64,000 bases of DNA from Candidatus Methanomethylicia archaeon (GCA_029259155.1 JAPDJI010000006.1:5657-69656); one strand, 5' to 3'; counted from the first letter of the stretch, positions 2,361 through 59,047 are shown. Notes: a model not told the origin generated them from the sequence alone. Made by a program: numbers and translations.

Positions 2361-3443
2361 TTGATCCTAGTCAAGACTCCCTTAGGTATGGAAAGGATAG
2401 CGGCTTCACGTATAACTGAGCTGGATGTAAACGTGGAAGTAGAGGCTAAGCCTTATGGTTACCCTGGCCTCGTCCTTGTTAAGGATGGATCTGAGGAGCT
2501 AGCCTCTAAGATTAAGGGCGAGGTCATAGAGGCTGAAAGGGTTCTGTTAGCTGATGAGGCGGTGAGCGCTGACATCGACTCTATAGTCAGCGCAGCGGTC
2601 AAGGTGGCTAAGCATAAGTTAACCGGCGCAAAGAGCTTCGCGGTAAGGACTGTCAGGAGGGGTTCTCACAGCTTTACTAGCATAGACGTAAACGTAAAGG
2701 TAGGAGCAGCTGTGAAGGCTGAGTTAGGCCTTCCTGTGGATCTAAGGAACCCTGATAAAATGCTTTGCATAGAGGTCTTGAAGGATTTAGTCCTCATAGG
2801 TGTGATGGAAGGCTCAGAGCTCCACCATAAACTCGGTCCGGGTAAACACTCAGTCCTCCCTTATCTTAGAAAGGCAGCCGTGGTTCAGATGCCTTACTTA
2901 GATTCCTTGGACGCTGCAAGGGAAATGGGCATAAGGATAGGCAGAGAGGTACAGACCTTTGAGGTCAAGGAGCTGGTAGTGGCCTTCATAGGCTCTGTGA
3001 AAGCCAGGGAACTTCAAGCTTTCCTTAATGGCGTCTTCGAGGGGATTAATTCGCGCTTTGAGATTCAACGACGTATCTACGCTCATACCGTGCATAAAGT
3101 GCCGGTTTACGTACAGGATCTTTACCAACTAGTAAGGGATAGGATGAAGGAGCCCCTCATAGTCTTTGAACCTGAAGGGCGTCCAGCCTCGACTTTGACC
3201 GAGGAGCTAGCCTCCTTTTTTACCGAGAGACATGGCAGGGTTAATCTCTTGTTAGGTTCCCGTGAAGGTATTCCTAGCGGCGTGTTTAGGTTCGCTGATC
3301 TAGTCGTCGACCTATGCCCTGGCGTAACCATAGCTACTGATCTAGCTGCTGCGTCAGCTCTCATAGCAATTGCAAGCGCCGTGGAGGAATGGCTTATTTC
3401 ACACGAGGAACAAAAGGCTAAGCAAGCCATGTCGGTTTCGTAA
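2361..3443 (+). CDS. Putative RNA methyltransferase: N-terminal THUMP-like domain plus C-terminal SPOUT (SpoU/TrmH-like) fold
   Basis: C-terminal LLLGSREGIPSG...ADLVVDLCPGVTIATDLAAASALIAIASAV resembles the SPOUT motif II/III region; N-terminal half resembles THUMP RNA-binding domains. Confidence 0.45.
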   Translation: MILVKTPLGMERIAASRITELDVNVEVEAKPYGYPGLVLVKDGSEELASKIKGEVIEAERVLLADEAVSADIDSIVSAAVKVAKHKLTGAKSFAVRTVRRGSHSFTSIDVNVKVGAAVKAELGLPVDLRNPDKMLCIEVLKDLVLIGVMEGSELHHKLGPGKHSVLPYLRKAAVVQMPYLDSLDAAREMGIRIGREVQTFEVKELVVAFIGSVKARELQAFLNGVFEGINSRFEIQRRIYAHTVHKVPVYVQDLYQLVRDRMKEPLIVFEPEGRPASTLTEELASFFTERHGRVNLLLGSREGIPSGVFRFADLVVDLCPGVTIATDLAAASALIAIASAVEEWLISHEEQKAKQAMSVS

Positions 3444-5754: not shown

Positions 5755-6320
5755 TAAACCACCACTAAACTGAAGCCTAACCTTAAGGCTTCAAGTGCAA
5801 CTGACCCTCTCACCTTAGCTCTAACTTCAGGCAGCTCTTCAATCAAAGCTTTTTCGAGGCTACGTAAACTCGGAATGCCCATCAGCTTCGATAAAGCTCC
5901 AACTAAAATTAGATTGCCAAGTAATGGCTTCTTCAACTTCTCTTCAGCTAATCTGAAGGCCGGGATAGTAACAGCTTTATAATTCTCGGTCGATACTTCC
6001 TTCACCTTCTCATCAATCACCAGCAGCCCTCCCAGCTTCAGTTTTCGGAGAGCTTTTCTAGCCACTCTCTCACTCATAATTATCAGGGCATCGAGCCTAG
6101 AAGTAAAAGGATAGGCTATAGGCCCGTCTGAAAGCACTAACTCGCTTAGGCTCAACGTACCCCTAACCTCCGCTCCATAACTGACAGATTGAGAAGCGTT
6201 GAATCCATCAAGCACTGCCGCCTTCCCTATGATAGATCCCGCCACTAAAACTCCCTGTCCACCTATCCCTGCTACTCCTACCTCAAGCCTCAAGCCCAGC
6301 CTTCCTCCCAGCTCTTTCAA
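5754..6320 (-). CDS. porG: 2-oxoacid:ferredoxin oxidoreductase gamma subunit
   Basis: GIGGQGVLVAGSIIGKAA motif typical of POR/VOR gamma; operon context. Confidence 0.8.
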   Translation of the reverse strand: MKELGGRLGLRLEVGVAGIGGQGVLVAGSIIGKAAVLDGFNASQSVSYGAEVRGTLSLSELVLSDGPIAYPFTSRLDALIIMSERVARKALRKLKLGGLLVIDEKVKEVSTENYKAVTIPAFRLAEEKLKKPLLGNLILVGALSKLMGIPSLRSLEKALIEELPEVRAKVRGSVALEALRLGFSLVVV

Positions 6321-7110
6321 TCATTAACTTGTAGGTTTCAACAAAGCCCGGCTTCTCTCTGTCGGCGTAAACCCCGACTAGGATTCTTCCTTCCACATCT
6401 ATGCCGCTGGCCTTACTAACGTCTAGGCTTCTCCGGAGCATCCACTTCATCATCTCAGCTGGCTTAGCCATTTTATTGCGCCTACCGAACTGTGTAGGAC
6501 AATGCGACAAGGCTTCGACGTAAGCAAACCCCTTCCTCTCTAAGGCCCTTCTAATAGCATTTTTCAGCATTACAGCGTGGGCCACGGTCCACCTAGCTAC
6601 GTAGCTTGCCCCTGCATCAGCAACTAGCCTTGCCACATCCATTCCGGGCTCAGGGTTTCCATAGGGAGTAGTGCTGGTGTAGGAGCCTTGCGGCGTGGTT
6701 GGAGCGGTCTGACCCCCAGTCATGCCATAGATCATGTTGTTAACCATTATCACCTTTATCTCTAGGTTTCTTCTAGCTGCATGTATTAGGTGGCTTAGCC
6801 CTATTCCTGCTAAGTCGCCGTCTCCCCCGAAAACTACTACTTCCTTATCCGGCCTAACCATCTTGATCCCTGTAGCCACAGGTATGCTCCTACCATGAAG
6901 TGTATGTATGGTATCGGCCTTAAAATGAGGAGAAGGTATCCAGGAGGAGCAGCCTATTCCGCTACAAAACACGAAGTTGCCCAGGTCTTCGTAGCCTAAC
7001 TCCTCGACTGCCTTAAAGAAACAGTTTGCCACGATACCGCAGCCACATCCTGGACAGAAAGGAGTAGGTAAGACTTCTTCGCGTAGGTATTTAAGAGCGA
7101 AGTGCCTCAT
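6283..7110 (-). CDS. porB: 2-oxoacid:ferredoxin oxidoreductase beta subunit (TPP-binding)
   Basis: CPGCGCG N-terminal motif and GDG...NN TPP-binding region; 4-nt overlap with the alpha subunit. Confidence 0.85.
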   Translation of the reverse strand: MRHFALKYLREEVLPTPFCPGCGCGIVANCFFKAVEELGYEDLGNFVFCSGIGCSSWIPSPHFKADTIHTLHGRSIPVATGIKMVRPDKEVVVFGGDGDLAGIGLSHLIHAARRNLEIKVIMVNNMIYGMTGGQTAPTTPQGSYTSTTPYGNPEPGMDVARLVADAGASYVARWTVAHAVMLKNAIRRALERKGFAYVEALSHCPTQFGRRNKMAKPAEMMKWMLRRSLDVSKASGIDVEGRILVGVYADREKPGFVETYKLMIERAGRKAGLEA

Positions 7111-35416: not shown

Positions 35417-35872
35417 TTGGAGAAGCGGATGAGTTGGGACGAGTACTTTATGGAGATGGCCAAGCTGGTCAGTAAGCGTAGTACCTGTTTAAGGAGGCAT
35501 ACGGGCGCTGTGCTCGTGAAGGATAACCGTATAATTGCTACTGGCTATAATGGAGCCCCTAAAGGGTTACCCCACTGCGCGGAGGTTGGCTGTATGAGGG
35601 AGGCTTTAAAGGTGCCTTCAGGTCAGCGACATGAGCTCTGTAGAGGGCTACATGCGGAGCAGAACGCCATTATTCAGGCAGCGGTGTTCGGCGTAAGCAC
35701 TAGGGGCGCTACGCTGTACACTACGACCTATCCCTGCGTGATATGCGCCAAGATGATTATTAATGCCGAGATCGGGGAGGTAGTGTACGATGACGACTAC
35801 GAGGACGACTTAGCCAAGCGAATGCTCAGCGAGGCGAGGATTAAGGTTAGGAGGTTTAAGACACGACGCTAG
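35417..35872 (+). CDS. dCMP/cytidine deaminase family zinc enzyme
   Basis: HAEQNAI and PCVICAKMI zinc-binding motifs. Confidence 0.75.
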
Positions 35873-37286
35873 CAGCCCGCTCCGCTGCCTCGATCAACGG
35901 GTCTGGATGTAGGCCTAGGGCGAGGCAGATCAAGGCCAGGGCGAACATGGGTATTAGCATGGCGAACGATACTCTAACCCTCCCCAGCCTCCTGCGGGTC
36001 AACATGACTCGGTTGATAAAGCGGAGCCAAGCAGCTGAGAACACCGCCATCATCACCGCTGCGGCCACGGTGGGCGCCAGTAGCCCCACGTCGACCCCGG
36101 CCATGTAAATGAGGAGCTCGCTCACGAATATGTTCAGGCCAGGGATGCCGATGATGGATAAGGAACCTATAAGTCCCGCTGCGCTAGCCTCAGGCATGAA
36201 CCATAGCATGTCGCCCAGCGTCCTAATGTTCCTGACCTTCACCTCATGGACTATGCAACCAGCGTAGAGGAAGAGGAGGCTCTTCACTATCTCATGGTTC
36301 AAGGTGTGAGCCACTGCTGCTACAGCCGCTCCGTGAGCGAAGAGGCCTAGGGCGAAGACCACTAAGCCCATCTCGTTGATGCTTGAGTAAGCCATGAAGC
36401 GCTTGATGTCAAGCTGAGAGAAGGATAGAATGGCTGTGTAGCTAAGCATCGCAAGCCCACATCCCCACACTAGCCAGCTAACTGACCTCAATGACTCTAG
36501 GCTCCAGCAGCCATACAATATCCTTAGGAAGCCGTAGGCCGCGACCTCTATCATCAACCCTGATAGCATGGCGCTGACGGGTGCGGGTGCTTCTGAGTGA
36601 GCATCAGGGAGCCATACGTGAAGCAGGGGGATCACGCCCATCTTAATCAGTAAGCCTATGGACACGGAGGCCGCTGCGAAGACTTCAAGGGGGCTGTCTA
36701 GGCCAAGTTCCTTCACGGCCAGGAGGTTAAAGGTCCCCTTTAAGGCGTAGAGCGATAGCAGGCCGAAGAGGAGGGTTGTTGAGGCCACGTGGGAGATGAG
36801 TAAGTATAGCATCGCTGCCCTAGGTGCCTCAGCGCCCTCCCCGTAAAGGTGAATGAGGGCGTAAGAAGACCAGACCATGAGCTCCCAGAAGAGGTAGAAG
36901 GCTATCATGTCCACTGACATCAAGCATCCAATCATGCCTGAGGTGAAGAGCAGGAGGAGGCCGCTGTAGAGCTGAGAGCCGTGCTCCACATACTTAGTGC
37001 TGTAGGTTAGGCAGGCGTGGCTGATGAAGGAGGCTAGTACCACGAAGGCCGCATTAAGCTCGTCGAAGCACAGCAGCCAGCTAAAGGCCAGCGAGCCTCC
37101 GTGGCCCCAGGAAGCCTCGAAGCACGCTCCCCCTTGGAGGTAGAGCTTGGTCGATAAGGTAAGCGCGGCAATCAACGCGGTGAGCGCAGCGGCCCAGGCC
37201 GCTGTTGGTGGAAGCTTACGCGAGCAGAGCGTATTGAAGCAGCCCACGGCAAGGGGGATTAATAGAATTAAGGCAGCCTCAAACAT
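35856..37286 (-). CDS. Complex I/Mrp antiporter-like subunit, NuoM/MrpD-like
   Basis: [23 protein letters not shown] closely matches the NuoM signature; 14 TM. Confidence 0.7.
36559..36623. repeat. 65-nt tract identical to 38495..38559 (inside paralogous antiporter-like genes)
   Basis: cctgatagcatggcgctgacgggtgcgggtgcttctgagtgagcatcagggagccatacgtgaag occurs in both genes; identity extends to about 72 nt with one mismatch. Confidence 0.9.
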
Positions 37287-39177
37287 GTTTAACCAGCCTC
37301 CAAGCTAGTGTTGCGAGCAGCGAGGCGGTGAAGGCGAGGAGCCAGGCTTGATTAAGCGATGCAGCAAGGAGAGCGGTGAGGAGGGCTGAGAGGGCTAGGC
37401 TTACATCGACCATCCTCCTCAATAGCTCTGCGGGGTGTCTCCTTCTAAGCGCTTGGCCTAGTGGGAGGCTGGAGGCCTTAGAGAAGAAGGCTGACTCGTG
37501 GGTCCTGGCTACCTCCTTGGCGGTCAGCATGGCCGCGTCGGGCAAATCATCTAAGAAGCCAGCTCTAAGCTTAGCTTCGGAGCCTTGGCTTAGGAGCCTC
37601 GACATCCTTAGAAACGACGAGGCCAGCCAGGAATACGCGTAGTCCACGCCGAGCCCAGAGGTCAGCAACGATGTGAGCCTCCTCGGGGCCGTGCAGTTGC
37701 CTATTTGATAATAGGCCCACCATAGGGCCAGGCCGGCCAGTGCGCATAGTAGGGTAGAGGCCATCAGGAAGAGGCTGAGCCTTACTTCGAGGGATTCCAC
37801 GATTCCGAGCGTGACCATCCACCTAGCAGGGGTAATGAGCAGCACGCCTAGAGGAAGGCCTAGGAGGCAAGCTGAGGCAAGCGCTAGCATGGGAGGCAGG
37901 GTGGTGGACGGCGGCGAGGCCTCGACGAGCCTGTAGGAGGAGCCGTAGATGAAGCCGAGTAGCCTAGCCACGTAGGCCACGGTGAGGGCAGAGCCCAGCA
38001 TCATTAACCCAGCCACCCAGAGCCTCCCCTCCTCGAGGGCTGTGTCTATTATCAGGTCCTTGGTGAAGAAGGCGTTGAGAGGAGGGATGGCTGCGAGGGC
38101 TAGGGCACCTATAGCGAAGGCAGCTCCATGAAGCCTTAGGTCGGTCCCCACCCCCCTAAGCACCCTTAAGTCCCTAGACCCAGCAGCGTGGCTTAACACG
38201 CCGGCGGCTAGGAAGAGGAGGGACTTGAAGAGGGCATGGCTGAAGGCGTGTAGGCCTGCTGCCACTAAGCCCAGCGTGGAAGCTAGGCCGAGGGAGGCCA
38301 CCATGTACCCTAGCTGGCTTATGGAAGAGAAGGCCAACACCCTCTTCACGTCAAGCTCGACTAGGGCTGCTGCCCCTCCATAAAGCAGGGTTACTACCCC
38401 CCCGAGGAGTAGTAGGGGGGCCAGCCCCTCAGCTATTTCCACGCTTAAGTCCATGGTCCTAATCAGCATGTAGACCCCGACGTGTACCATCAATCCTGAT
38501 AGCATGGCGCTGACGGGTGCGGGTGCTTCTGAGTGAGCATCAGGGAGCCATACGTGAAGTGGGTAGATGGCCACCTTGAAGGCTAGCCCAGCGACCATTA
38601 AGGCGCAGGCCAGCTTCAAGCCCCACGTAGCCTCGTGGGCTGCTAAGAAGCGTAGCTGAGCGAGGTCGAAGGTATGGGTGGTCATGTAGAAGGTGACTAT
38701 GGACACTACCATCAACGCGCCGCCTAGGTGAGTGAAAATGAAGTACTTAGTAGCTATCGACAGCGCTTTCTCCTTGGGACACTCAGCCCAGTGGGCTATA
38801 AGGAGGTAGGAAGGTATCAACATGAACTCCCAGAACACGTAGAAGAGCACGAAGTTTCTTGAGGTCACTGAGCCAGCCATGCCGAGGGCGAAGAGGCATA
38901 GCAGGCCGAAGAACCTGGACCTATCAGTCTCCACGTAGCTGTGAGAGTAGACGCTGGCGAGGAGCGATATGGTGAGCACGAGGACTATGAAAGCCTGGGA
39001 GAGTAGGTCGTTGAAGAAGGGTAGGTCAATGGGGTCGGGGATGAAGAGGAAGGCGAGAGACATAGCCAAACCAAGTGAAGCTGCGAGACCTGCGTGTTCC
39101 TCAAGCCTATCGCTCACCGCTATGGTTAGAAGCACACCAGTGGCGGAGAGAACCATGAGAGAGTAGAGGGTACCCAT
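37279..39177 (-). CDS. Complex I/Mrp antiporter-like subunit, NuoL/MrpA-like (632 aa)
   Basis: [33 protein letters not shown] and a length consistent with NuoL including a long C-terminal region. Confidence 0.7.
   Translation of the reverse strand: MGTLYSLMVLSATGVLLTIAVSDRLEEHAGLAASLGLAMSLAFLFIPDPIDLPFFNDLLSQAFIVLVLTISLLASVYSHSYVETDRSRFFGLLCLFALGMAGSVTSRNFVLFYVFWEFMLIPSYLLIAHWAECPKEKALSIATKYFIFTHLGGALMVVSIVTFYMTTHTFDLAQLRFLAAHEATWGLKLACALMVAGLAFKVAIYPLHVWLPDAHSEAPAPVSAMLSGLMVHVGVYMLIRTMDLSVEIAEGLAPLLLLGGVVTLLYGGAAALVELDVKRVLAFSSISQLGYMVASLGLASTLGLVAAGLHAFSHALFKSLLFLAAGVLSHAAGSRDLRVLRGVGTDLRLHGAAFAIGALALAAIPPLNAFFTKDLIIDTALEEGRLWVAGLMMLGSALTVAYVARLLGFIYGSSYRLVEASPPSTTLPPMLALASACLLGLPLGVLLITPARWMVTLGIVESLEVRLSLFLMASTLLCALAGLALWWAYYQIGNCTAPRRLTSLLTSGLGVDYAYSWLASSFLRMSRLLSQGSEAKLRAGFLDDLPDAAMLTAKEVARTHESAFFSKASSLPLGQALRRRHPAELLRRMVDVSLALSALLTALLAASLNQAWLLAFTASLLATLAWRLVKHV
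38495..38559. repeat. 65-nt tract identical to 36559..36623
   Basis: See the paired repeat. Confidence 0.9.
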
Positions 39178-39181
39178 CGAC

Positions 39182-40633
39182 CTAGACCTCCATCATCCAA
39201 CTCTCCTCCAAGCAGGCTACGGCCGCCTTGTGAGCTGACTCAAGGAACGGTGAAGGAGCGAGGCCTATGAGGAAGCAACTTATGATCAGCGAGATTATTA
39301 GGGCTCGGAGGCCCCAGCTAGCTCCACGCTGCGTGGATGGCCCCTCCCCGGCCCTGCTGTACATGGAGTAGAGAGCCCTCATGAAAGATGCCAGCATAAC
39401 TAGGTCGAGCACGATGAAGGCCGCCGCTACCCATAGGAGACCCTCCTCAACCATCGATAGGAACACTAAGAACTTGCTGTGGAAGCCGTTGAGTGGGGGC
39501 ACAGCGCAGCTACTGAGCGAGGCTATAAGGAAGCCAGTGGTGCCTAGTAGCACGTGTTTATAGGCACCCTTTAAGGCATAGATTCTCCTTCCCTGAGAGG
39601 ACTGTATGAAGAGCGCTATGCTGGCGAAGAAGAGGTTCTTAATTAACACGAGGTTGAGCACGTGGAAGAAGACTCCTTGAAGGGCCGTATGGTTAGCTAT
39701 GCCCCAAGCCATCATCAACACACCCCCCTCCCCCACTGAGGTACAGGTTACGAGGCGCTTAAGGTCGTCCTGGCCGAGCGCAAGTAGGTAGCCAGCAGCC
39801 ATGTTTACAACAGCGGCCGCGAGGAAGAAGTCCTTCAAGGCTGGTAAGAGGGGACGGTACACGGTGAATAACATGCGGGTCGCTCCATAGAAGCCGACGA
39901 CTCTCACCGCAGCAGCCATGAACGCGCTCGAGGGGCTTGGAGCCCATGGGTTAACCCCCGGGAACCATATATGGGCTGGGAACACCGCTAACTTCACCCA
40001 AAAACCTCCCAGCACGAGGGGTAGGGTCAGCCATAGAGCCTGAGGCGGAATAGTGGAAGCCACCTCAGGTATCATGGTCGACCCTGCCTGAAGAGCTAGT
40101 ACCGCGAAGCCGAGCACGAGGAGGATGGTGGAGGCCGCGTCGAAGGCTAAGTAGAGCGCTAAGCTCTCCCTAGGCCCTGTATCTATGCCGACCTCGTCAG
40201 GTAGGCGGGGGGCCATGAAGTAGTAGGAGGCCAAGTTCATCAATAGGTAGAAGAGGAGAAAGCTAAGGAGGTCGCCACAGTAAATAAGGCTCACGATCCC
40301 CAGCAGGGATAAGGTGAGGGAAGCATAGTAAGCAGGATCGTTTAGCTTCTTTAAGTAAGTAGCTGCTAAGAGCATGGCGGCAGCTCCAGCCATGGTGAAC
40401 TTCTCGAGGAGCAGTGCTCCATAGGCGTCCAGGAAGAGAAGGCTTGGAGACCTAGAGAGCACGGCTGGGGTATCCTCGACAAGGGGGGCTGCTAAAAACG
40501 AAGCTGCTAGGCAGGCTAGGGAGCCTACTACAGCTACGTAGCTAGTAAGCTTAGCTCCACGCTTCACTACCGCTGAGGCTGAGGTGGCTACAGCTGTAAC
40601 AATAGCCGCCTGTAGAGGCAGTGAGGCTAGCAA
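39182..40633 (-). CDS. Complex I/Mrp antiporter-like subunit, NuoN/MrpD-like
   Basis: HIWFPGVNPWAPSPSSAFMAAAV motif; 14 TM. Confidence 0.65.
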   Translation of the reverse strand: MLASLPLQAAIVTAVATSASAVVKRGAKLTSYVAVVGSLACLAASFLAAPLVEDTPAVLSRSPSLLFLDAYGALLLEKFTMAGAAAMLLAATYLKKLNDPAYYASLTLSLLGIVSLIYCGDLLSFLLFYLLMNLASYYFMAPRLPDEVGIDTGPRESLALYLAFDAASTILLVLGFAVLALQAGSTMIPEVASTIPPQALWLTLPLVLGGFWVKLAVFPAHIWFPGVNPWAPSPSSAFMAAAVRVVGFYGATRMLFTVYRPLLPALKDFFLAAAVVNMAAGYLLALGQDDLKRLVTCTSVGEGGVLMMAWGIANHTALQGVFFHVLNLVLIKNLFFASIALFIQSSQGRRIYALKGAYKHVLLGTTGFLIASLSSCAVPPLNGFHSKFLVFLSMVEEGLLWVAAAFIVLDLVMLASFMRALYSMYSRAGEGPSTQRGASWGLRALIISLIISCFLIGLAPSPFLESAHKAAVACLEESWMMEV

Positions 40634-53669: not shown

Positions 53670-54065
53670 TTCTAAAATAACTCTTCACCTCCTATTGAAT
53701 TTATGTCGGAAGTCGAACTCATGCTGTTGGTAGCTAGGGTGCACGGCGCTGAAGTAGTTTCACGGATATGTACTGCCTGCAGGGAATATGAGGATGCTGT
53801 AGCGCTAGCTTTAATCTCGAAGGTGGACGCTGAGAGGCTCGGGCTTAAGGATGGAGACCTCGTTGAGGTGTCTTCTATTACGTCTGTAGTGACCGTTAAG
53901 GTTAAGGTCTCCGATGAGGTACGTGAGGGGCAAGTCTTGATGCCGCAGAGCCCTTGGTCTATGTCGCTCATACCTAGCAGCTGGGCTTCAAGGCCATACC
54001 CTAGGCTTAGCGGACTCAAGGTAACGGTTAAGCGGTCTTCGGGTGAAGCAACCAGCCTTGACAAG

Positions 54066-55373
54066 CTACTCCACTCCTGAGAACTCTTTCCTCAACCTCT
54101 CGAGGTCGCCGCGCTCGAAGAGTATCCTAACCTTTGGGGAGGCGAAGATCTTGATGGCCTCCTCGACTCTTCTCTTAACCAGCTCGAAGCCTGCTGGAAG
54201 AGGTGGTATAGGTCTCGGGGGCGGCGGCACGTACTCTTCTGTGGGAAGCTCTACTTTCCTCGCGTATAGCTCGCCCCTTGGCGCTCTGTAGCCTTCAAGC
54301 ACTTTCTTAAAGAACTCTTCATAGCTAGCTGACCAAGGGGCTCTACCTTTCTCAATCCTCATGTGCTTTCTCCTAACCTCTAAGGCCTCGACAGGACAGG
54401 CCTCCTCGCAGGCTCCACAGTATATGCAAGCTTCCTTGACAGCCGATACCTTGTCTGGTCCCACTGCCTTAGAGACGTATATTGCCTTAGTCGGACAAAT
54501 GTTGATGCAGTTTTTACATCCTGAAGGATCGCACTTATCAGGGTTAACCATGACCACCTCTCCGTCAAAGGGGGGCTCACAGCTTACAGCCTCGGTGGGA
54601 CATACCTTAGCGCATAGCCCACAGTAGACGCAGAGCTCTTCGTCGACCTCCACCGAGCCGCTTACGCGAGGCTTCTCTACGACCCTCGGCGCAGCCTTTG
54701 TACACTCGACCTTTATAGCGTCCGTCGGACATATCTCCTCGCATAGGCCACAGTAGTCGCAGAGCTCCTCGTTGACGATGATTGTTAGCCCCGGCTTAAA
54801 GCTGGGCGCTTCAGGCCGAGTCCACTCAATCCGTAGCGCATCGCAGAGATCTTCGCATAGGCCGCAGTAACAACACTTCTCTAGGTCTACAGCTATCTTG
54901 CCCTCGGCGTACCTATCAGCTGTCTCGTACTTGACAAGGTCTTCCTTCTTAGCCACCTCGACCTTAGCCTTGATGGCTACACGAGGGCACACGCGCTCGC
55001 ATAGGTGGCATGGGATGCACTTGTCCTCATCGATCGATATGGAGCCCTCGACCCTTGGGTACTCCTCCTCGTGCTCGATGTTGACCTTGAGGGCGTGGGT
55101 AGGGCAGATTGACGAACATAGGGGGCATATCACGCACTTGCCCTCGTCTATCATTATGAGGGGGGCCTCCAACTTACCTGAAGCGACCTCCTTAATGGGC
55201 CCCAAGCTAATGGCGTTAGTGGGGCACACCTTGACGCATAGACCGCAGCCCACACAACGATCGATTATGAAGGTTAGCTCCTTACCTAATACAACGCCCT
55301 GCCACCTGTAGAGCAGGAGATTTTCCTCTATCGCTGAGAGCTCGGTGATGGGCTTCTCAGACAAAGCTTCCAC
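54066..55373 (-). CDS. Polyferredoxin with eight [4Fe-4S] motifs (FwdF/MvhB-like)
   Basis: Eight CxxCxxCxxxC(P) motifs counted; 17-nt overlap with the hdrA stop. Confidence 0.75.
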   Translation of the reverse strand: MEALSEKPITELSAIEENLLLYRWQGVVLGKELTFIIDRCVGCGLCVKVCPTNAISLGPIKEVASGKLEAPLIMIDEGKCVICPLCSSICPTHALKVNIEHEEEYPRVEGSISIDEDKCIPCHLCERVCPRVAIKAKVEVAKKEDLVKYETADRYAEGKIAVDLEKCCYCGLCEDLCDALRIEWTRPEAPSFKPGLTIIVNEELCDYCGLCEEICPTDAIKVECTKAAPRVVEKPRVSGSVEVDEELCVYCGLCAKVCPTEAVSCEPPFDGEVVMVNPDKCDPSGCKNCINICPTKAIYVSKAVGPDKVSAVKEACIYCGACEEACPVEALEVRRKHMRIEKGRAPWSASYEEFFKKVLEGYRAPRGELYARKVELPTEEYVPPPPRPIPPLPAGFELVKRRVEEAIKIFASPKVRILFERGDLERLRKEFSGVE

Positions 55374-57768
55374 CTCCAGTGGCCTCGGAGCCTATTGGCC
55401 CGAGGTTAGCCACCTCATCCACGAACCATCTTATCAGCTCCGCCAGCCTCTTTCCCTCAGTCGCTGAAGCCCCGTCGATGTGGAGCCTCCTAGGGTTTAT
55501 GCCTACCTCCTTCAACACTTCCCTGAGGGCTGAGGCCCTTTCATTAGCCTTCGCCCTGCCGGAGCGGTAGTGACAGTCTTGTTCGTGGCAGCCAACTATG
55601 AGCACGCCGTCAGCCCCCAACTCAAAGGCCTCTAGCACGTGTACCGGCGTGACCCTAGCTGAACAAGGCACCCTGATGACCCTCACGTTAGTCGGGTAGG
55701 GAATCTTGCTAGTCCCAGCGTTGTCTGCGGCTGCGTAGCCGCACCACTGGCACATGAAGGCCACTATGAGCGGGAACTCCTTCTTCTCGGACAGCAGGGC
55801 CTTAAGCATGAGCGATATCTGCTCGTTGCTCAGGATCCCGCCGGGAGGAGATAGAGCTCCTGTCGGACACACTGCATAGCATGCTCCACAGCCTCGGCAG
55901 GCTAGCTCATCTACCTCCACCTTCCCCTTCTCCACCTTCAGGGCTCCGAAGAGGCATGCATTTACGCAAGCGAAGCATCGCTTACATGTACTTGGATCAA
56001 TGGTAGGAGCGTAGACCTCAACCTCAACCTCACCTCTCTTGATGAGCTCTGCTGCCCTAGCCGCCGCAAGCCCAGCTTGCATGACAGACTCGGTTATATC
56101 CTTAGGCCCTGTGCACGCTCCCGCCACGAAGATTCCTTTGCTGAAGGTGTCGGCTGGGTTAAGCTTTAAGTGATACTCAGCTAGGAAGTCGTAATCGCTT
56201 AGCTGTAGGCCGAGGAGCTTGGCCAGCTCCCTATTGTCTGGGGGCGCCTCCACGCCTACGCTGAGTACGACGAGGTCGAACTCCTCCTCGACCATCTCTG
56301 AGGAGAGTGTGTCCTCGTAGAAGATCTTGATCCTCCCTTGCTTCGTGGCCCTAAGCTGCCCTACCTTCGCCCTTAGGAAGCGTACGCCCAGCTCCAGGGC
56401 CCTCCTGTAGGCTTCCTCACACGCCTTGCCAATGGCTCTCACGTCGGTGTAGAAGATGGCAACGTCGACGTCGGGGAGCATGAGCTTGGTCTGTATGCTC
56501 TGCTTGATGGCGTTCATGCAACATACTCGGCTACAGTAAGGCCTCCCAATCCTGTCAGACCTGCTCCCCACACACTGTATGAAGGCTACTTTCTTAGGTT
56601 GCGCCCCGTCCGATAACCTAATTATTTTTCCCTTGGTTGGACCCGAGCTATTAAGCATCCTTTCGTACTCGGGCCCCGTCACGACGTCGAGGCACCTGCC
56701 ATAAAGGTATTCTGGAAGCCCCCGCGGGTCAAAGGGCTTGAAGCCGGTGGCTACGATGATGGCCCCTACCTTGAACTCGATGTAAGAGTCTTGGTCCTTG
56801 AAGTTTATAGCTTTAGGATCGCATACCCCGAGGCACGACATGCAGCCAATACACCTACTCATATCTATGTAAGGCGCTGGAGGGACGGTTTCTGGCGAGG
56901 GCTTAACGATGGCCCTCCTCATACCTATACCGTAGTCGTACTCGCTGGGGGCCTCGATGGGGCATACATCGAGGCACTTATTGCACCCGTTGCAGAGCTT
57001 TTCATCGATGTACCGAGCCTTCTTCAACACCTTCACGGTGTAGTTGCCGGGCGCACCCTTGACCTCTACGACCTCGCTCAGCGTGTACACGTCTATTAGG
57101 GGGTGGTTGTACACCTTCGAGAGTTGGGGGCCTAGCACGCAAATGCTGCAGTCAAGGGTTGGATAGACCTTGTCCCACTTGGCCATGTGCCCCCCTATGA
57201 AGCCCTCCTTCTCCACGAGGTATACCTTGATCCCCATGTCGGCAAGGCTTAGAGCGGCTGTGATCCCTGCTACGCCTCCACCTATGACTAGGACCGCTTT
57301 CTCCACGGGCAGCTTTGCTACCTTAGCCTCCCTGGCGTAAGGCGCTGCGGCTATGGCCATGCTGACCAGGTCAGCGGCCTTGACGGTAGCTCTATCTGGG
57401 TCGTGTGCGTGGACCCATGAGCACTGTTCCCTCAGGTTAACTATCTCCACGAAGCCTCTATTGAGGCCAGCCTCCTCAGCGGCGTTCTTGAAGAGCTCGC
57501 TGTGTAGTGTAGGGGTGCAGCATCCTATGATTAAGCGGCTAGCCTTCTCCTCCTTTAAGGCCTCTTTTATTTTTCTTAGGCCATCATCGCTGCAGCAGTG
57601 CTCATGTTCATAGAAGGCTACGTCTGAGTACTTCTCAGATAGAGTTTTAATGACCTTACCTACATTTACTACCCCTGCGATGTTTGAGCCGCAGTGACAG
57701 ATGAAGGTCAGGACCTTGCTGGGAGCTCCCCCCGCACCGTCCAGCCTAGCCGTCTAGACCACCTTCAT
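55357..57768 (-). CDS. hdrA: Heterodisulfide reductase subunit A fused to a C-terminal MvhD domain; the conserved N-terminal Fe-S domain lies upstream of the first canonical start and is preceded by ATG-AAG-GTG-GTC-TAG
   Basis: FAD motif VLVIGGGVAG, inserted ferredoxin motifs, C-terminal FMCQWCGYAAAD...IRVPCSARV (MvhD). The in-frame upstream sequence LTFICHCGSNIAG...IIGCCTPTLH...NLREQCSWVH is the HdrA N-terminal domain. The ORF track starts at GTG 57450; ATG at 57766..57768 is followed by an in-frame TAG at 57754..57756. Confidence 0.7.
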
Positions 57769-57775
57769 TAAGCGT

Positions 57776-59047
57776 TTAGAGCGAGGAGCTCAACCTCTCA
57801 AGGAACACCTCCTCGTCAGCCACGCTGGCTGGAGGCTTAAGGAAGGGTTTAAGCTTCACTTCGACGCCGTCCATCCTCGTAACTGTCCCTCCACTCTCAA
57901 CACCCATTATTGAGAGCGGAACCGAGACTTTCCCGTTAGAGAAGGTCCAGGTAGCCCTCTCCTCTAGGACTATTGTTGGGATCCTCATTAAAGCCTTAAC
58001 TGCTAGAGGGGTTAGTTCCTCGGACACCTCGCTTTTAACTATGAGTGCTGCGTCCACCCCTTCCCGCTCGAGCTGGCAAGTTGCAGTAGCCTCAGGGGAC
58101 ATGTGTTCTTTAAGGGCTGAGAAATCCAGGGCCCGTGGCGCGCCCCCAAGCTTCTTTGTGATGAGGGCTTGGCCCATAGAGTTCACGTACTCAGCCATAG
58201 GCATTATGGAGACCTTCTTTCCAAGCTCAAGCAGCGACCTAGCCAGCTCAGCCATGGAGCTTAAAGCCTCTTCAGGCTTCTCCGACTGAAGTAGTCCGCG
58301 GCCGATGAACATAGCCACGTAGGTGGCCGGCTTAAGGTCCTTAATTATGGATGAGAGGTCCCTTAAAGTTACACCTGCGGCCTCGCCCACCGTGGGGGTC
58401 TTGCTAAACATAAGGTCTCTTAGCGCTCTAGCGAGCTCAGCGTCGCTTCCAGGCCTTAACAGTACTTTATGCTGGGCTATCCTCATGGTATTAGTCTCCC
58501 TAACATCGACCACCGCGACTATCCTGCTCTCTCTGCCCATAGGGGTGCTTCTTCCCCTCGGAAACACGGCGTAGCGACTTGCATGCCTCAGGTGAGTCTC
58601 TGCGGGATCCGCACCCCAGTACAATATGAAATCGGCGTCTTCAAGGATATCGTCCAAGCGAGCGCCTAGGAAAGAGGGGTCGAGGTCTAAGAGGGCGTGG
58701 CAAATGCTCGCTGAGCTATCGTAGAGTCCTCTAAGCTTCTGGGCTAGTTTTACTAGAAGCTCTACAGTCCTATTGGTACTGTTTGCCCCTCCGTAGATAA
58801 GCGGCTTCTTCGCCACCTTTAAGATCTCAGCGGCCTTTTCTAAAGCTTCGTCCACCGACACCTCCTTGAGTCCTCCCTGCTCAGCGATGGCCACCTTCAT
58901 AGGCCTAGCTCCGACGAGCTCCTTGAACCTCTTGGTCCCATGGCTACAAGTACCCAGGACCCTAGTTACCGTGTTGTCTCTTACGTCCACCACTATATCG
59001 TCGCACAGCAACGAGCAACTAGTGCAGGGCACACCCTCTATCTCCAT
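57776..59047 (-). CDS. Formylmethanofuran dehydrogenase subunit B (FwdB/FmdB)-like molybdo/tungstopterin subunit
   Basis: VPCTSCSLLCDDI, ASICHA, DFILYWGADPAETHLRHASR, VAVVDVRET, VTRMDGVEV align motif-for-motif with the FwdB N-terminal Fe-S, the active-site Cys region and the pterin-binding segments. Confidence 0.7.
   Translation of the reverse strand: MEIEGVPCTSCSLLCDDIVVDVRDNTVTRVLGTCSHGTKRFKELVGARPMKVAIAEQGGLKEVSVDEALEKAAEILKVAKKPLIYGGANSTNRTVELLVKLAQKLRGLYDSSASICHALLDLDPSFLGARLDDILEDADFILYWGADPAETHLRHASRYAVFPRGRSTPMGRESRIVAVVDVRETNTMRIAQHKVLLRPGSDAELARALRDLMFSKTPTVGEAAGVTLRDLSSIIKDLKPATYVAMFIGRGLLQSEKPEEALSSMAELARSLLELGKKVSIMPMAEYVNSMGQALITKKLGGAPRALDFSALKEHMSPEATATCQLEREGVDAALIVKSEVSEELTPLAVKALMRIPTIVLEERATWTFSNGKVSVPLSIMGVESGGTVTRMDGVEVKLKPFLKPPASVADEEVFLERLSSSL

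Follow-up and report, generated by a model that had tools for sequence, protein, structure and literature searches.

An ACG codon at the ancestral start position of an archaeal hdrA gene: a candidate near-cognate initiation site behind a strong Shine–Dalgarno sequence

The hdrA gene described here raises the question of how the conserved N-terminal domain of its product is translated, if it is translated at all. The source organism is a Thermoproteota-type archaeon, uncultured and from hot sediment, and the gene lies on the minus strand of a 64,000-nucleotide stretch of its DNA (the window). It is clustered with fwdB-like, fwdF-like and fwdD-like genes, and its partner genes include hdrB, hdrC, a polyferredoxin gene and the fwdB-like gene. 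According to a preliminary description of the locus, some 100 conserved HdrA codons come before GTG 57450, the earliest canonical start. Our analysis bears this out: the translation quoted there is exact, and no ATG, GTG or TTG precedes that GTG in frame. On the minus strand, nothing interrupts the frame between ACG 57753 and the hdrA stop at 55357. The window has a high coding density and holds no further broken genes and no second hdrA. A TPP-enzyme gene at the window end was considered as a second lesion and rejected, since the gene runs off the window. The features at the level of the genes are the following.

55357–57753, minus strand: full-length hdrA frame, 798 codons from ACG and then a TGA stop; HdrA–MvhD/FlpD fusion of the HdrA2 type.
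57451–57753, minus strand: segment for the N-terminal [4Fe-4S] domain without ATG, GTG or TTG, 101 codons.
57448–57450, minus strand: GTG at codon 102, inside the N-terminal domain; earliest canonical start and the one chosen in public annotation.
57776–59047, minus strand: fwdB-like gene; 312 bits to TIGR03129 (cutoff 327.8, NCBIfam) and a Pfam Molybdopterin match.

The hdrA product contains the FAD-binding thioredoxin-reductase-like domain and the inserted and C-terminal ferredoxin domains by which HdrA is recognized. In Pfam, Pyr_redox_2 and FAD_oxidored match from residue 153 on, Fer4 families match at residues 254–316 and 583–634, and PF02662 (FlpD, E = 6e-48) covers the C-terminal MvhD/FlpD domain at residues 663–785. 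The solved HdrA structure 5ODC_A is matched at E = 3e-185 over hdrA residues 14–635, and hdrA residues 14–116 pair with 5ODC_A residues 6–108. The NCBIfam HdrA2 model (NF040770) is covered from position 4 to 777 at 987.7 bits, below its cutoff of 1100, and the product is HdrA2-like, not the curated equivalog. Within residues 1–115 there are 23 invariant columns among 19 aligned sequences (18 orthologs and the window). Cys-19, Cys-21, Cys-54 and Cys-79 are invariant in 19/19 and all present in the window hdrA, which retains every family-invariant residue of the N-terminal domain. The dN/dS of the segment against the sister species (L005) is 0.11–0.13, and the domain has diverged from outgroups no more than the sister's domain has, with no faster decay. 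All close orthologs have the domain, contrary to the possibility raised in the preliminary description that HdrA of this lineage genuinely lacks it. By homology, then, the upstream 101 codons are the true N-terminal domain of HdrA. We ranked every window ORF of 150 codons or more, stop to stop, by its start-less leader and found that the hdrA leader, at 101 codons, is the longest, the others reaching at most 38; two shadow ORFs that lie antisense to hdrA and to the fwdB-like gene (58 and 87 codons) were set apart. At the frequency of start-type codons in the rest of hdrA (40/697), a start-less run of 101 codons has P = 0.0026. The start-less leader of hdrA exceeds chance.

The preliminary description had proposed that a natural ATG start is cut off from the domain by an in-frame amber codon. 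The arrangement itself is as it was described: the fwdB-like TAA stop lies at 57778–57776, 22 nt before the ACG, and is followed after seven nucleotides by an ATG, then by AAG GTG GTC and by TAG at 57756–57754, all on the minus strand. The features of this short region are listed below.

57754–57768, minus strand: mini-ORF ATG AAG GTG GTC TAG, four codons; overlaps the Shine–Dalgarno sequence.
57757–57764, minus strand: extended Shine–Dalgarno sequence AGGTGGTC, GGTG core at 57763–57760; predicted duplex −12.3 kcal/mol.
57754–57756, minus strand: TAG, the last triplet of the 5′ spacer from Shine–Dalgarno sequence to start, from ortholog and window-gene parallels.
57751–57753, minus strand: ACG, proposed near-cognate initiation codon at the ancestral ATG position, from aligned ortholog starts, spacing and frame.
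57728–57733, minus strand: G6 run in the N-terminal tail; GGT GCG GGG GGA here and, in the same frame, GGT GAG GGG GGT in ortholog L097 (P0005).

The orthologs assign different roles to these elements. The ACG aligns with the ATG start of five of them (L012, L014, L097, L016 and L074), so that the column reads A, then T in all five or C in the window, then G. The Nezhaarchaeales ortholog L012 has AAGGTGTTATAG-ATG where the window has AAGGTGGTCTAG-ACG, and a by-eye count on the alignment gives 17/24 identical positions in the start region, including the TAG. The Shine–Dalgarno sequence and the spacer also align upstream of the ortholog starts. A stop triplet directly before the start recurs in L012 (TAG), L016 (TGA) and L074 (TAA), and a parallel within the window is the gene at 6283–7110, which begins with GGTGGCGTAG-ATG. 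The upstream ATG 57768–57766 has no Shine–Dalgarno sequence ahead of it; its position is ATC in L012, and the ORF is missing from the sister species L005. Read from the alignment, the TAG is untranslated spacer and not a codon of hdrA, and the mini-ORF is probably fortuitous. The preliminary description was thus right about a conserved Fe–S domain without a canonical start and wrong about the lesion: neither an interrupted natural start nor a nonsense mutation within the gene fits L012, in which TAG directly precedes a normal ATG, and the altered codon is the next one, the ACG.

Comparison with L005 alone had equated the ACG with the L005 GTG, but MAFFT offered a competing register that set the Shine–Dalgarno sequence and GTG start of L005 against GGCTGGACGGTG. 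That register raised the possibility of a GTG-to-GCG change, or of one nucleotide lost from the G6 run together with a −1 frameshift. We rejected both, as L097 and L012 identify the long tail and the in-frame G6 run as the ancestral state and L005 as the derived one, with a 27-nt deletion and its start relocated to GTG. On the same alignment the G6 run is ancestral and in frame and not a frameshift site, and the tail from the ACG to the first Cys, 18 codons, falls among the ortholog tails of 16–23 codons and is homologous in frame to that of L097. Another relative, L007 (ex4572_27), has a 22-nt deletion at the start region and several split genes nearby, and was dropped because its assembly is too unreliable. 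From the aligned starts we conclude that the lesion is a change of ATG to ACG at 57753–57751, a T-to-C transition. The closest hdrA ortholog in the protein database is 81% identical, with no relative there between 81% and 100%, so that the change has no datable intermediate lineage; a scan of the genome collection did not return the source species itself, the nearest match being the 81% sister.

The ACG is in frame with the conserved domain and lies 6 nt after the GGTG, the commonest GGTG-to-start spacing among the window genes (10 cases; 19 cases at 5–7 nt). Among about 50 hdrA loci, AGGTGGTC ties with that of L031 as the strongest start-proximal Shine–Dalgarno sequence, with duplex energies computed against a generic archaeal 16S 3′ end, the organism's own lying outside the window. 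An Rfam scan of the window had no matches, hence neither a 16S 3′ end nor a tRNA. There is no canonical start in any frame 3–10 nt after AGGTGGTC, and RNA structure around the start is the same as in shuffled sequences (z = −0.56). By its sequence, the ACG has the attributes expected of a near-cognate site, namely a homologous position, the usual spacing and a constrained ORF without an alternative start. The GGTG-N6-start arrangement is also found in the P. abyssi model mRNA of archaeal initiation studies (PMC6237735).

We propose that initiation at the ACG, directed by the Shine–Dalgarno sequence, yields full-length HdrA at a reduced level, a reading that we regard as probable, with considerable reservation. 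The small ribosomal subunit would dock on AGGTGGTC and place the ACG in the P site, and the initiator Met-tRNA would pair with it despite the C·A mismatch in the middle of the codon. The product would be full-length HdrA, M-ARLDGAGGAPSKVLTFICHCG..., its rate of synthesis probably amounting to a small fraction of that from an ATG, the unusually strong Shine–Dalgarno sequence compensating in part and the mini-ORF being incidental. Bacteria tolerate such a middle-position mismatch poorly. The initiation efficiency of ACG in E. coli is 0.1–1% of that of AUG, and the N-terminal Met was identified by mass spectrometry (bioRxiv 10.1101/063800). Archaeal aIF1 destabilizes complexes on non-AUG codons (PMC6237735), and in Haloferax volcanii about 30% of the putative alternative initiation sites from ribosome profiling are near-cognate (PMC7261190). 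In a Thorarchaeota-like hdrA clade the same GGTG-N6 site is followed by GTG (11 cases), TTG (3) or CTG (4), and a weaker codon goes with a stronger Shine–Dalgarno sequence (Mann–Whitney p = 0.006, uncorrected for phylogeny). In the operon studied here, the start of hdrC appears from its sequence to be an ATT preceded by AGGAGGTGA. Together with the CTG starts of four Asgard hdrA genes, this apparent ATT start hints at a recurrent pattern of weak starts. It is a tentative, and on balance doubtful, extension of our proposal that the ACG is a genuine, maintained initiation codon and that weak starts (ACG, CTG, ATT) with extra-strong Shine–Dalgarno sequences are a recurrent, selected output setting in archaeal hdr operons. 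Our literature search for a natural ACG start in a prokaryote found none, only organelle, viral and engineered cases. If genuine, the ACG of hdrA would, to our knowledge, have no precedent as a natural ACG start in Archaea.

The ACG is carried by every haplotype at hand. Four other assemblies (L001–L004) match the 400 nt surrounding the site at 100% identity, and TAG-ACG also occurs in L008 and L094, making six other assemblies in all: JGI 3300014914 and 3300014887, three from ENA and one from Logan. They have different linked SNPs, and 49 sites in 8.1 kb distinguish the contigs from the window. A scan of metagenomes with the pattern GGTGGTCNNNNNNGCTAGGCTGGACGG for other start codons at this site returned the two JGI contigs already known, one chance match unrelated to them, and nothing else. 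Of the hdrA SNPs, 7 are synonymous and 1 is a conservative change, compared with ratios of 6:1 and 4:1 in the neighbouring fwdB-like gene and FeS gene; the 303-nt start-less segment has zero SNPs, and selection within the population is unmeasurable there. The SNP patterns are mosaic, and the ACG allele could have spread by recombination once some SNPs were already in place; the argument from selection loses force accordingly. One codon farther down the gene differs in another haplotype.

56176–56178, minus strand: GAG for the family-invariant E526; TAG in one other haplotype, L096 (ERZ25515786, 6.5x coverage).

This TAG is a singleton G-to-T change, with only one further difference in 3.8 kb, and the nonsense allele may be an error. 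Apart from this internal TAG of L096, hdrA has no further lesion in the window and five other haplotypes, and its rate is not accelerated.

The main rival to initiation at the ACG is that the change from ATG abolished translation and that hdrA is (nearly) non-functional, an early pseudogene yet to decay. We consider this unlikely, though well worth entertaining. ACG is outside the starts of translation table 11, and its efficiency in E. coli is low, as cited above; population divergence is only about 0.3%, too small for decay to be visible; one haplotype has the stop at E526; and the start region is unstable in the clade, as the deletions in L005 and L007 illustrate. Against start loss stand the presence of the allele in 6/6 other assemblies on several distinct haplotypes, a SNP ratio in hdrA that indicates constraint like that of the neighbouring genes, and a Shine–Dalgarno sequence that is intact and exceptionally strong; the nonsense allele, from a 6.5x assembly, may be an error. 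Moreover, hdrB, hdrC, the polyferredoxin gene and the fwdB-like gene are constrained, which would serve no purpose in the absence of HdrA, barring a paralog.

The other readings leave the ACG aside or alter it. Translation could begin at ATG 57768, in frame with hdrA and close enough behind the fwdB-like stop for termination–reinitiation, and pass the TAG in part, through amber suppression or pyrrolysine-like recoding. This is very unlikely: besides the missing Shine–Dalgarno sequence and the missing ATG in L012 and L005, it requires two inefficient steps in series, and the L012 parallel makes the TAG spacer. TAG is also a normal stop in the window and is not avoided there, ending 24/72 non-shadow ORFs (TAA 26, TGA 22), and no Pyl-related protein was found among the ~17 of roughly 72 window ORFs screened against protein families. 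All public annotations instead call the ORF from GTG 57450, which gives 697 residues (e.g. RLF11038.1 and RLF18292.1), with a weak GAGG motif 4 nt ahead of that GTG. It is nevertheless highly improbable that this shorter protein is the product that functions and that the segment before it is a remnant, as the GTG lies inside a domain that shows no decay and is kept in all close orthologs. The truncated product would lose all four invariant Cys and, because these are missing, would lack the A3 [4Fe-4S] cluster, the link between the bifurcating FAD and the low-potential branch (PMC13518236). An out-of-frame start at GTG 57737–57735 with a −1 slip on the G6 run would agree with the MAFFT pairing of L005 GGGTGGAC...GTG with GGCTGGACGGTG, and GGG-to-GGG re-pairing on the run is possible. 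The L005 arrangement is derived, however, and L097 has the run in the same coding frame, which leaves nothing to repair; the Shine–Dalgarno sequence before this GTG is weak (−4.7 kcal/mol) and an X XXY YYZ slippery heptamer is absent, which together make the slip extremely improbable. C-to-U editing of the mRNA could restore AUG from ACG, yet we know of no such editing in archaea and the window suggests no editing factor, so that we find it hardly credible. In plant organelles, editing of ACG to AUG at start codons is a known mechanism (PMC12548569). For a sequencing or assembly error, also offered in the preliminary description, we found no support, and its probability is close to nil, the identical sequence coming from six further assemblies with different linked SNPs. 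Of the four explanations that the description had listed, non-canonical initiation is the best supported.

If initiation at the ACG is correct, it bears on annotation as well as on mechanism. Every public record of the protein is short by 101 residues and without the [4Fe-4S] domain that feeds the low-potential bifurcation branch, and ACG starts are invisible to gene callers, with the consequence that similar cases would be systematically mis-annotated in metagenome-assembled genomes. Archaea combine Shine–Dalgarno docking with eukaryote-type proofreading of the start codon by aIF1, aIF1A and aIF2. A natural ACG behind a maximal Shine–Dalgarno sequence, if true, would be a test case of Shine–Dalgarno strength versus codon stringency. 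Should start loss be true instead, a population-wide allele in a central energy-conservation gene would have been caught before decay.

Compared with known systems, the proposed initiation at ACG is closest to the near-cognate starts of prokaryotes, with the same one-base distance from AUG, a Shine–Dalgarno sequence at normal spacing, presumed reading as Met by the initiator tRNA and low output expected; it differs in concerning a core energy-metabolism gene in an archaeon with eukaryotic-type initiation factors. ACG, with its middle-base mismatch, is not among the rare starts of table 11 (CTG, ATT, ATC and ATA). Eukaryotic initiation at ACG and CUG, as in AAV VP2, likewise uses ACG at reduced efficiency and has e/aIF1, e/aIF1A and e/aIF2 in common, but it depends on scanning and Kozak context, whereas here a Shine–Dalgarno duplex would place the codon. 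Yeast near-cognate uORFs are a further example (PMC6898956), and in E. coli initiation has been measured from all 64 codons (bioRxiv 10.1101/063800). Plant organelle genes also have ACG at a conserved ATG position, but need an editing machinery that is not known in archaea. Pyrrolysine or amber decoding shares the in-frame TAG before conserved coding sequence, but TAG is a frequent ordinary stop here, and by homology this one lies outside the gene. The protein itself, with an N-terminal four-Cys domain, FAD, two ferredoxin and C-terminal MvhD/FlpD domains, has the same domain order as HdrA of the Mvh–Hdr complex (PDB 5ODC) and the HdrA2-type HdrA–MvhD fusions, from which it differs in its score below the NCBIfam cutoff and its setting among fwdB-like, fwdF-like and fwdD-like genes.

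The hdrA gene follows the fwdB-like gene on the minus strand, and its frame is open far upstream of its first canonical start codon. The preliminary description of this region was correct throughout on the positions of the ATG and the TAG, the open frame, and the first canonical start at GTG 57450. The features are as follows.

57778–57776, minus strand: TAA stop of the fwdB-like gene
57768–57754, minus strand: ATG AAG GTG GTC TAG, beginning 7 nt past that stop
57763–57760, minus strand: GGTG, followed by GTCTAG and then ACG
57753–55357, minus strand: hdrA open frame of 798 codons, from ACG 57753 to the stop at 55357
57450, minus strand: GTG, the first in-frame ATG, GTG or TTG of hdrA, at codon 102
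53693–53685, minus strand: strong Shine-Dalgarno sequence of hdrC, AGGAGGTGA, 7 nt before ATT and 16 nt before TTG 53669, the first canonical start
53678–53676, minus strand: putative ATT start of hdrC, with an in-frame TGA two codons upstream

The public annotation begins HdrA at GTG 57450 (697 aa, P0001). Judged by conservation, the 101 codons upstream of this GTG are genuine HdrA: they retain every column invariant among 19 aligned sequences, including C19, C21, C54, and C79, and the match to the solved HdrA 5ODC_A runs from hdrA residue 14 and 5ODC_A residue 6 onward (E 3e-185). The 798-codon product has an HdrA–MvhD fusion architecture by Pfam, scores 987.7 bits against NCBIfam HdrA2 (under the cutoff of 1100), and includes in the N-terminal part of its translation the predicted peptides ARLDGAGGAPSK and VLTFICHCGSNIAGVVNVGK. 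At the codon usage of hdrA itself, a run of 101 codons without a start codon has a probability of P = 0.0026, and the start-codon-free leader is at most 38 codons in all other credible ORFs of the window. Of the six Val codons in the segment 57451–57753 (minus strand), four are GTA and two GTC, which leaves it no in-frame rescue start; outside the segment, hdrA uses GTG more than any other Val codon (24 of 66).

We fixed the register of the hdrA start regions by aligning orthologs.

Start regions of hdrA in the window and in five orthologs
Window: AATGAAGGTGGTCTAG ACG GCT
L012, Nezhaarchaeales: AATCTAAGGTGTTATAG ATG CTT
L014: ...AAGTGACTTGAG ATG
L097 (protein P0005): ...GCGCGTAGAG ATG
L016, Methanomethylicia: AGGTGGTTGA ATG
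L074, Methanomethylicia: AGGTGATTAA ATG

At the start codon, the first and third positions are A and G throughout; the second is T in the five orthologs and C in the window. The window tail T-ARLDGAGGAPSKV and the L097 tail M-REGGEGGYPPEKV are in-frame homologues, G6 run included, and the distance from ACG to the first Cys, 18 codons, fits the 16–23 of close orthologs. From the start-region alignment and the tail homology together, the TAG very likely belongs to the spacer, and the ACG very likely occupies the place of a former ATG. The TAG had been taken for codon 5 of hdrA; it reads instead as the triplet that closes the 5′ spacer, and in L012 a TAG likewise stands immediately ahead of a normal ATG. 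Nor does the upstream ATG hold up as the natural start, as L012 has ATC there and the mini-ORF that it opens, probably a non-conserved coincidence, overlaps the Shine-Dalgarno sequence. On this alignment, the actual change at the hdrA start is a single transition, ATG to ACG. The stretch GGUCUAG-ACGG-CUAGGCU (57743–57760, minus strand) could fold, through two CUAG palindromes, into a hairpin of 7 bp; the 121-nt start region folds no better than shuffled sequences (z = −0.56).

A sequencing or assembly error, suggested at the outset, has a negligible probability. The 400 nt around the hdrA start are identical in four other assemblies, and TAG-ACG is found in two more; the sources are two JGI metagenomes with derived NCBI MAGs, three ENA assemblies, and one Logan assembly. 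Relative to the window, these contigs show 49 differences in 8.1 kb and therefore represent several distinct haplotypes. Initiation at the upstream ATG with amber readthrough is very unlikely: TAG serves this genome as a normal stop, ending 24 of 72 non-shadow window ORFs (TAA 26, TGA 22), and amber recoding is not indicated. A start at GTG 57737 followed by a −1 slip on the G6 run (57733–57728) is hardly credible, being contradicted by L097, which has the same G6 run in its homologous tail. We give equally little credence to C-to-U editing of the hdrA start (position 57752) in the mRNA.

We lean toward Shine-Dalgarno-directed initiation at ACG as the source of full-length HdrA. The ACG combines the homologous start position with the commonest Shine-Dalgarno spacing, GGTG lying most often 6 nt ahead of the start in window genes that have such a sequence. 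It stands behind AGGTGGTC, for which a duplex of −12.3 kcal/mol is predicted with a generic archaeal 16S 3′ end rather than the organism's own; this Shine-Dalgarno sequence is joint strongest among about 50 hdrA loci, and no canonical start in any frame lies 3–10 nt downstream of it. The 30S subunit would dock there, the initiator tRNA would accept ACG inefficiently, and translation would yield full-length HdrA. In E. coli, ACG initiates at 0.1–1% of AUG and yields an N-terminal Met (bioRxiv 10.1101/063800), and near-cognate codons made up about 30% of the putative alternative sites of initiation in ribosome profiling of Haloferax (PMC7261190). Counting against ACG initiation, aIF1 acts against non-AUG complexes (PMC6237735).

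The principal alternative, possible though unlikely, is that ACG is a start-loss allele and hdrA is on its way to loss. Every haplotype has ACG, which was counted for use of hdrA; mosaic SNP patterns indicate recombination, however, and this weakens the timing argument. Also in favour of use, hdrA carries seven synonymous SNPs and one conservative SNP (V to I) between haplotypes; the neighbouring genes are alike in this, with 6:1 in the fwdB-like gene, 4:1 in the FeS gene, 5:2 in the polyferredoxin gene, and 9:4 in hdrB. The 303-nt start-free segment has zero SNPs, and selection there is not directly assessable. Likewise in favour of use, the N-terminal domain has diverged from Nezhaarchaeales outgroups no further than the canonically started domain of the sister species (81% identical). 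Against this sister dN/dS is 0.11–0.13 in the domain and 0.05 elsewhere in hdrA, with dS saturated; family-wide the domain is about 1.2 times as variable as the rest of the protein. Counting against use, a singleton G to T at window position 56178 turns the codon of the family-invariant E526 from GAG to TAG in ERZ25515786 (L096 position 1450, 6.5x coverage), which matches the window over 3.8 kb but for this change and one other and in which hdrA is called as 424-aa and 256-aa pieces; either a genuine nonsense allele or a mistake due to low coverage would explain it. A functional truncated HdrA from GTG 57450, as annotated, is highly improbable. The N-terminal domain bears the A3 [4Fe-4S] cluster, the link between the bifurcating FAD and the low-potential branch (PMC13518236), and all four invariant Cys are missing from a product begun at that GTG.

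The start region of hdrA is, from the aligned sequences, unstable in this clade. The sister species (L005, L006, L011) has lost 27 nt, a derived change, and starts at a new GTG six codons farther into the frame, its Shine-Dalgarno sequence and GTG having arisen from former coding sequence (positions 2987–3003). Geothermarchaeota ex4572_27 (L007, 2980–3005), whose assembly also has several split genes, lacks 22 nt here, with just 'MFICHC' remaining ahead of the first Cys.

Putative weak starts elsewhere in hdr genes favour initiation at ACG by analogy. In an Asgard/Thorarchaeota-like hdrA clade (comparison loci L027, L032–L046, L064, L071) the conserved site is GGTG-N6-NTG AGY, which holds GTG in 11 species, TTG in three, and CTG in four (L028, L030, L031, L068). 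The weaker start codon goes with the stronger Shine-Dalgarno sequence (−9.0 to −12.3 kcal/mol for CTG versus −5.4 to −8.5 for GTG; p = 0.006, not phylogenetically corrected). The 12-mer AAGGTGGTCTAG ahead of CTG in L031 is identical in the window, and L030 and L031 have no canonical start upstream of the first strand. Within the hdrA operon, hdrC seems from its sequence to start at ATT, where the NCBI record begins it (153 aa; other gene callers, 125 aa); if true, the operon would contain two non-canonical starts.

Between the polyferredoxin gene and hdrC lies a FwdD-like gene (Pfam Molydop_binding, E 1e-14; 53703–54080, plus strand) running opposite to the minus-strand hdr operon, an antisense arrangement kept in L097 and missing in the sister L005; the overlapping minus-strand ORF 53672–54064 has no family match. 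Three neighbouring Proton_antipo_M genes (Nuo/Mrp-type antiporter subunits; 35856–40633, minus strand) hint at an energy-converting complex in the membrane, encoded some 15 kb away from the hdr cluster. Rfam returned no RNA family, tRNA included, over the 64-kb window.

Database entries for this HdrA are all short of one whole cofactor-binding domain. A non-functional ACG would be a commonplace inactivating mutation seen at an early stage. Among the papers searched, none described a natural prokaryotic ACG start. Near-cognate initiation occurs in all domains of life. A functional hdrA ACG would involve no new mechanism. ACG starts are familiar in eukaryotic and viral mRNAs; in plant organelles they are present as well, but are edited to AUG.
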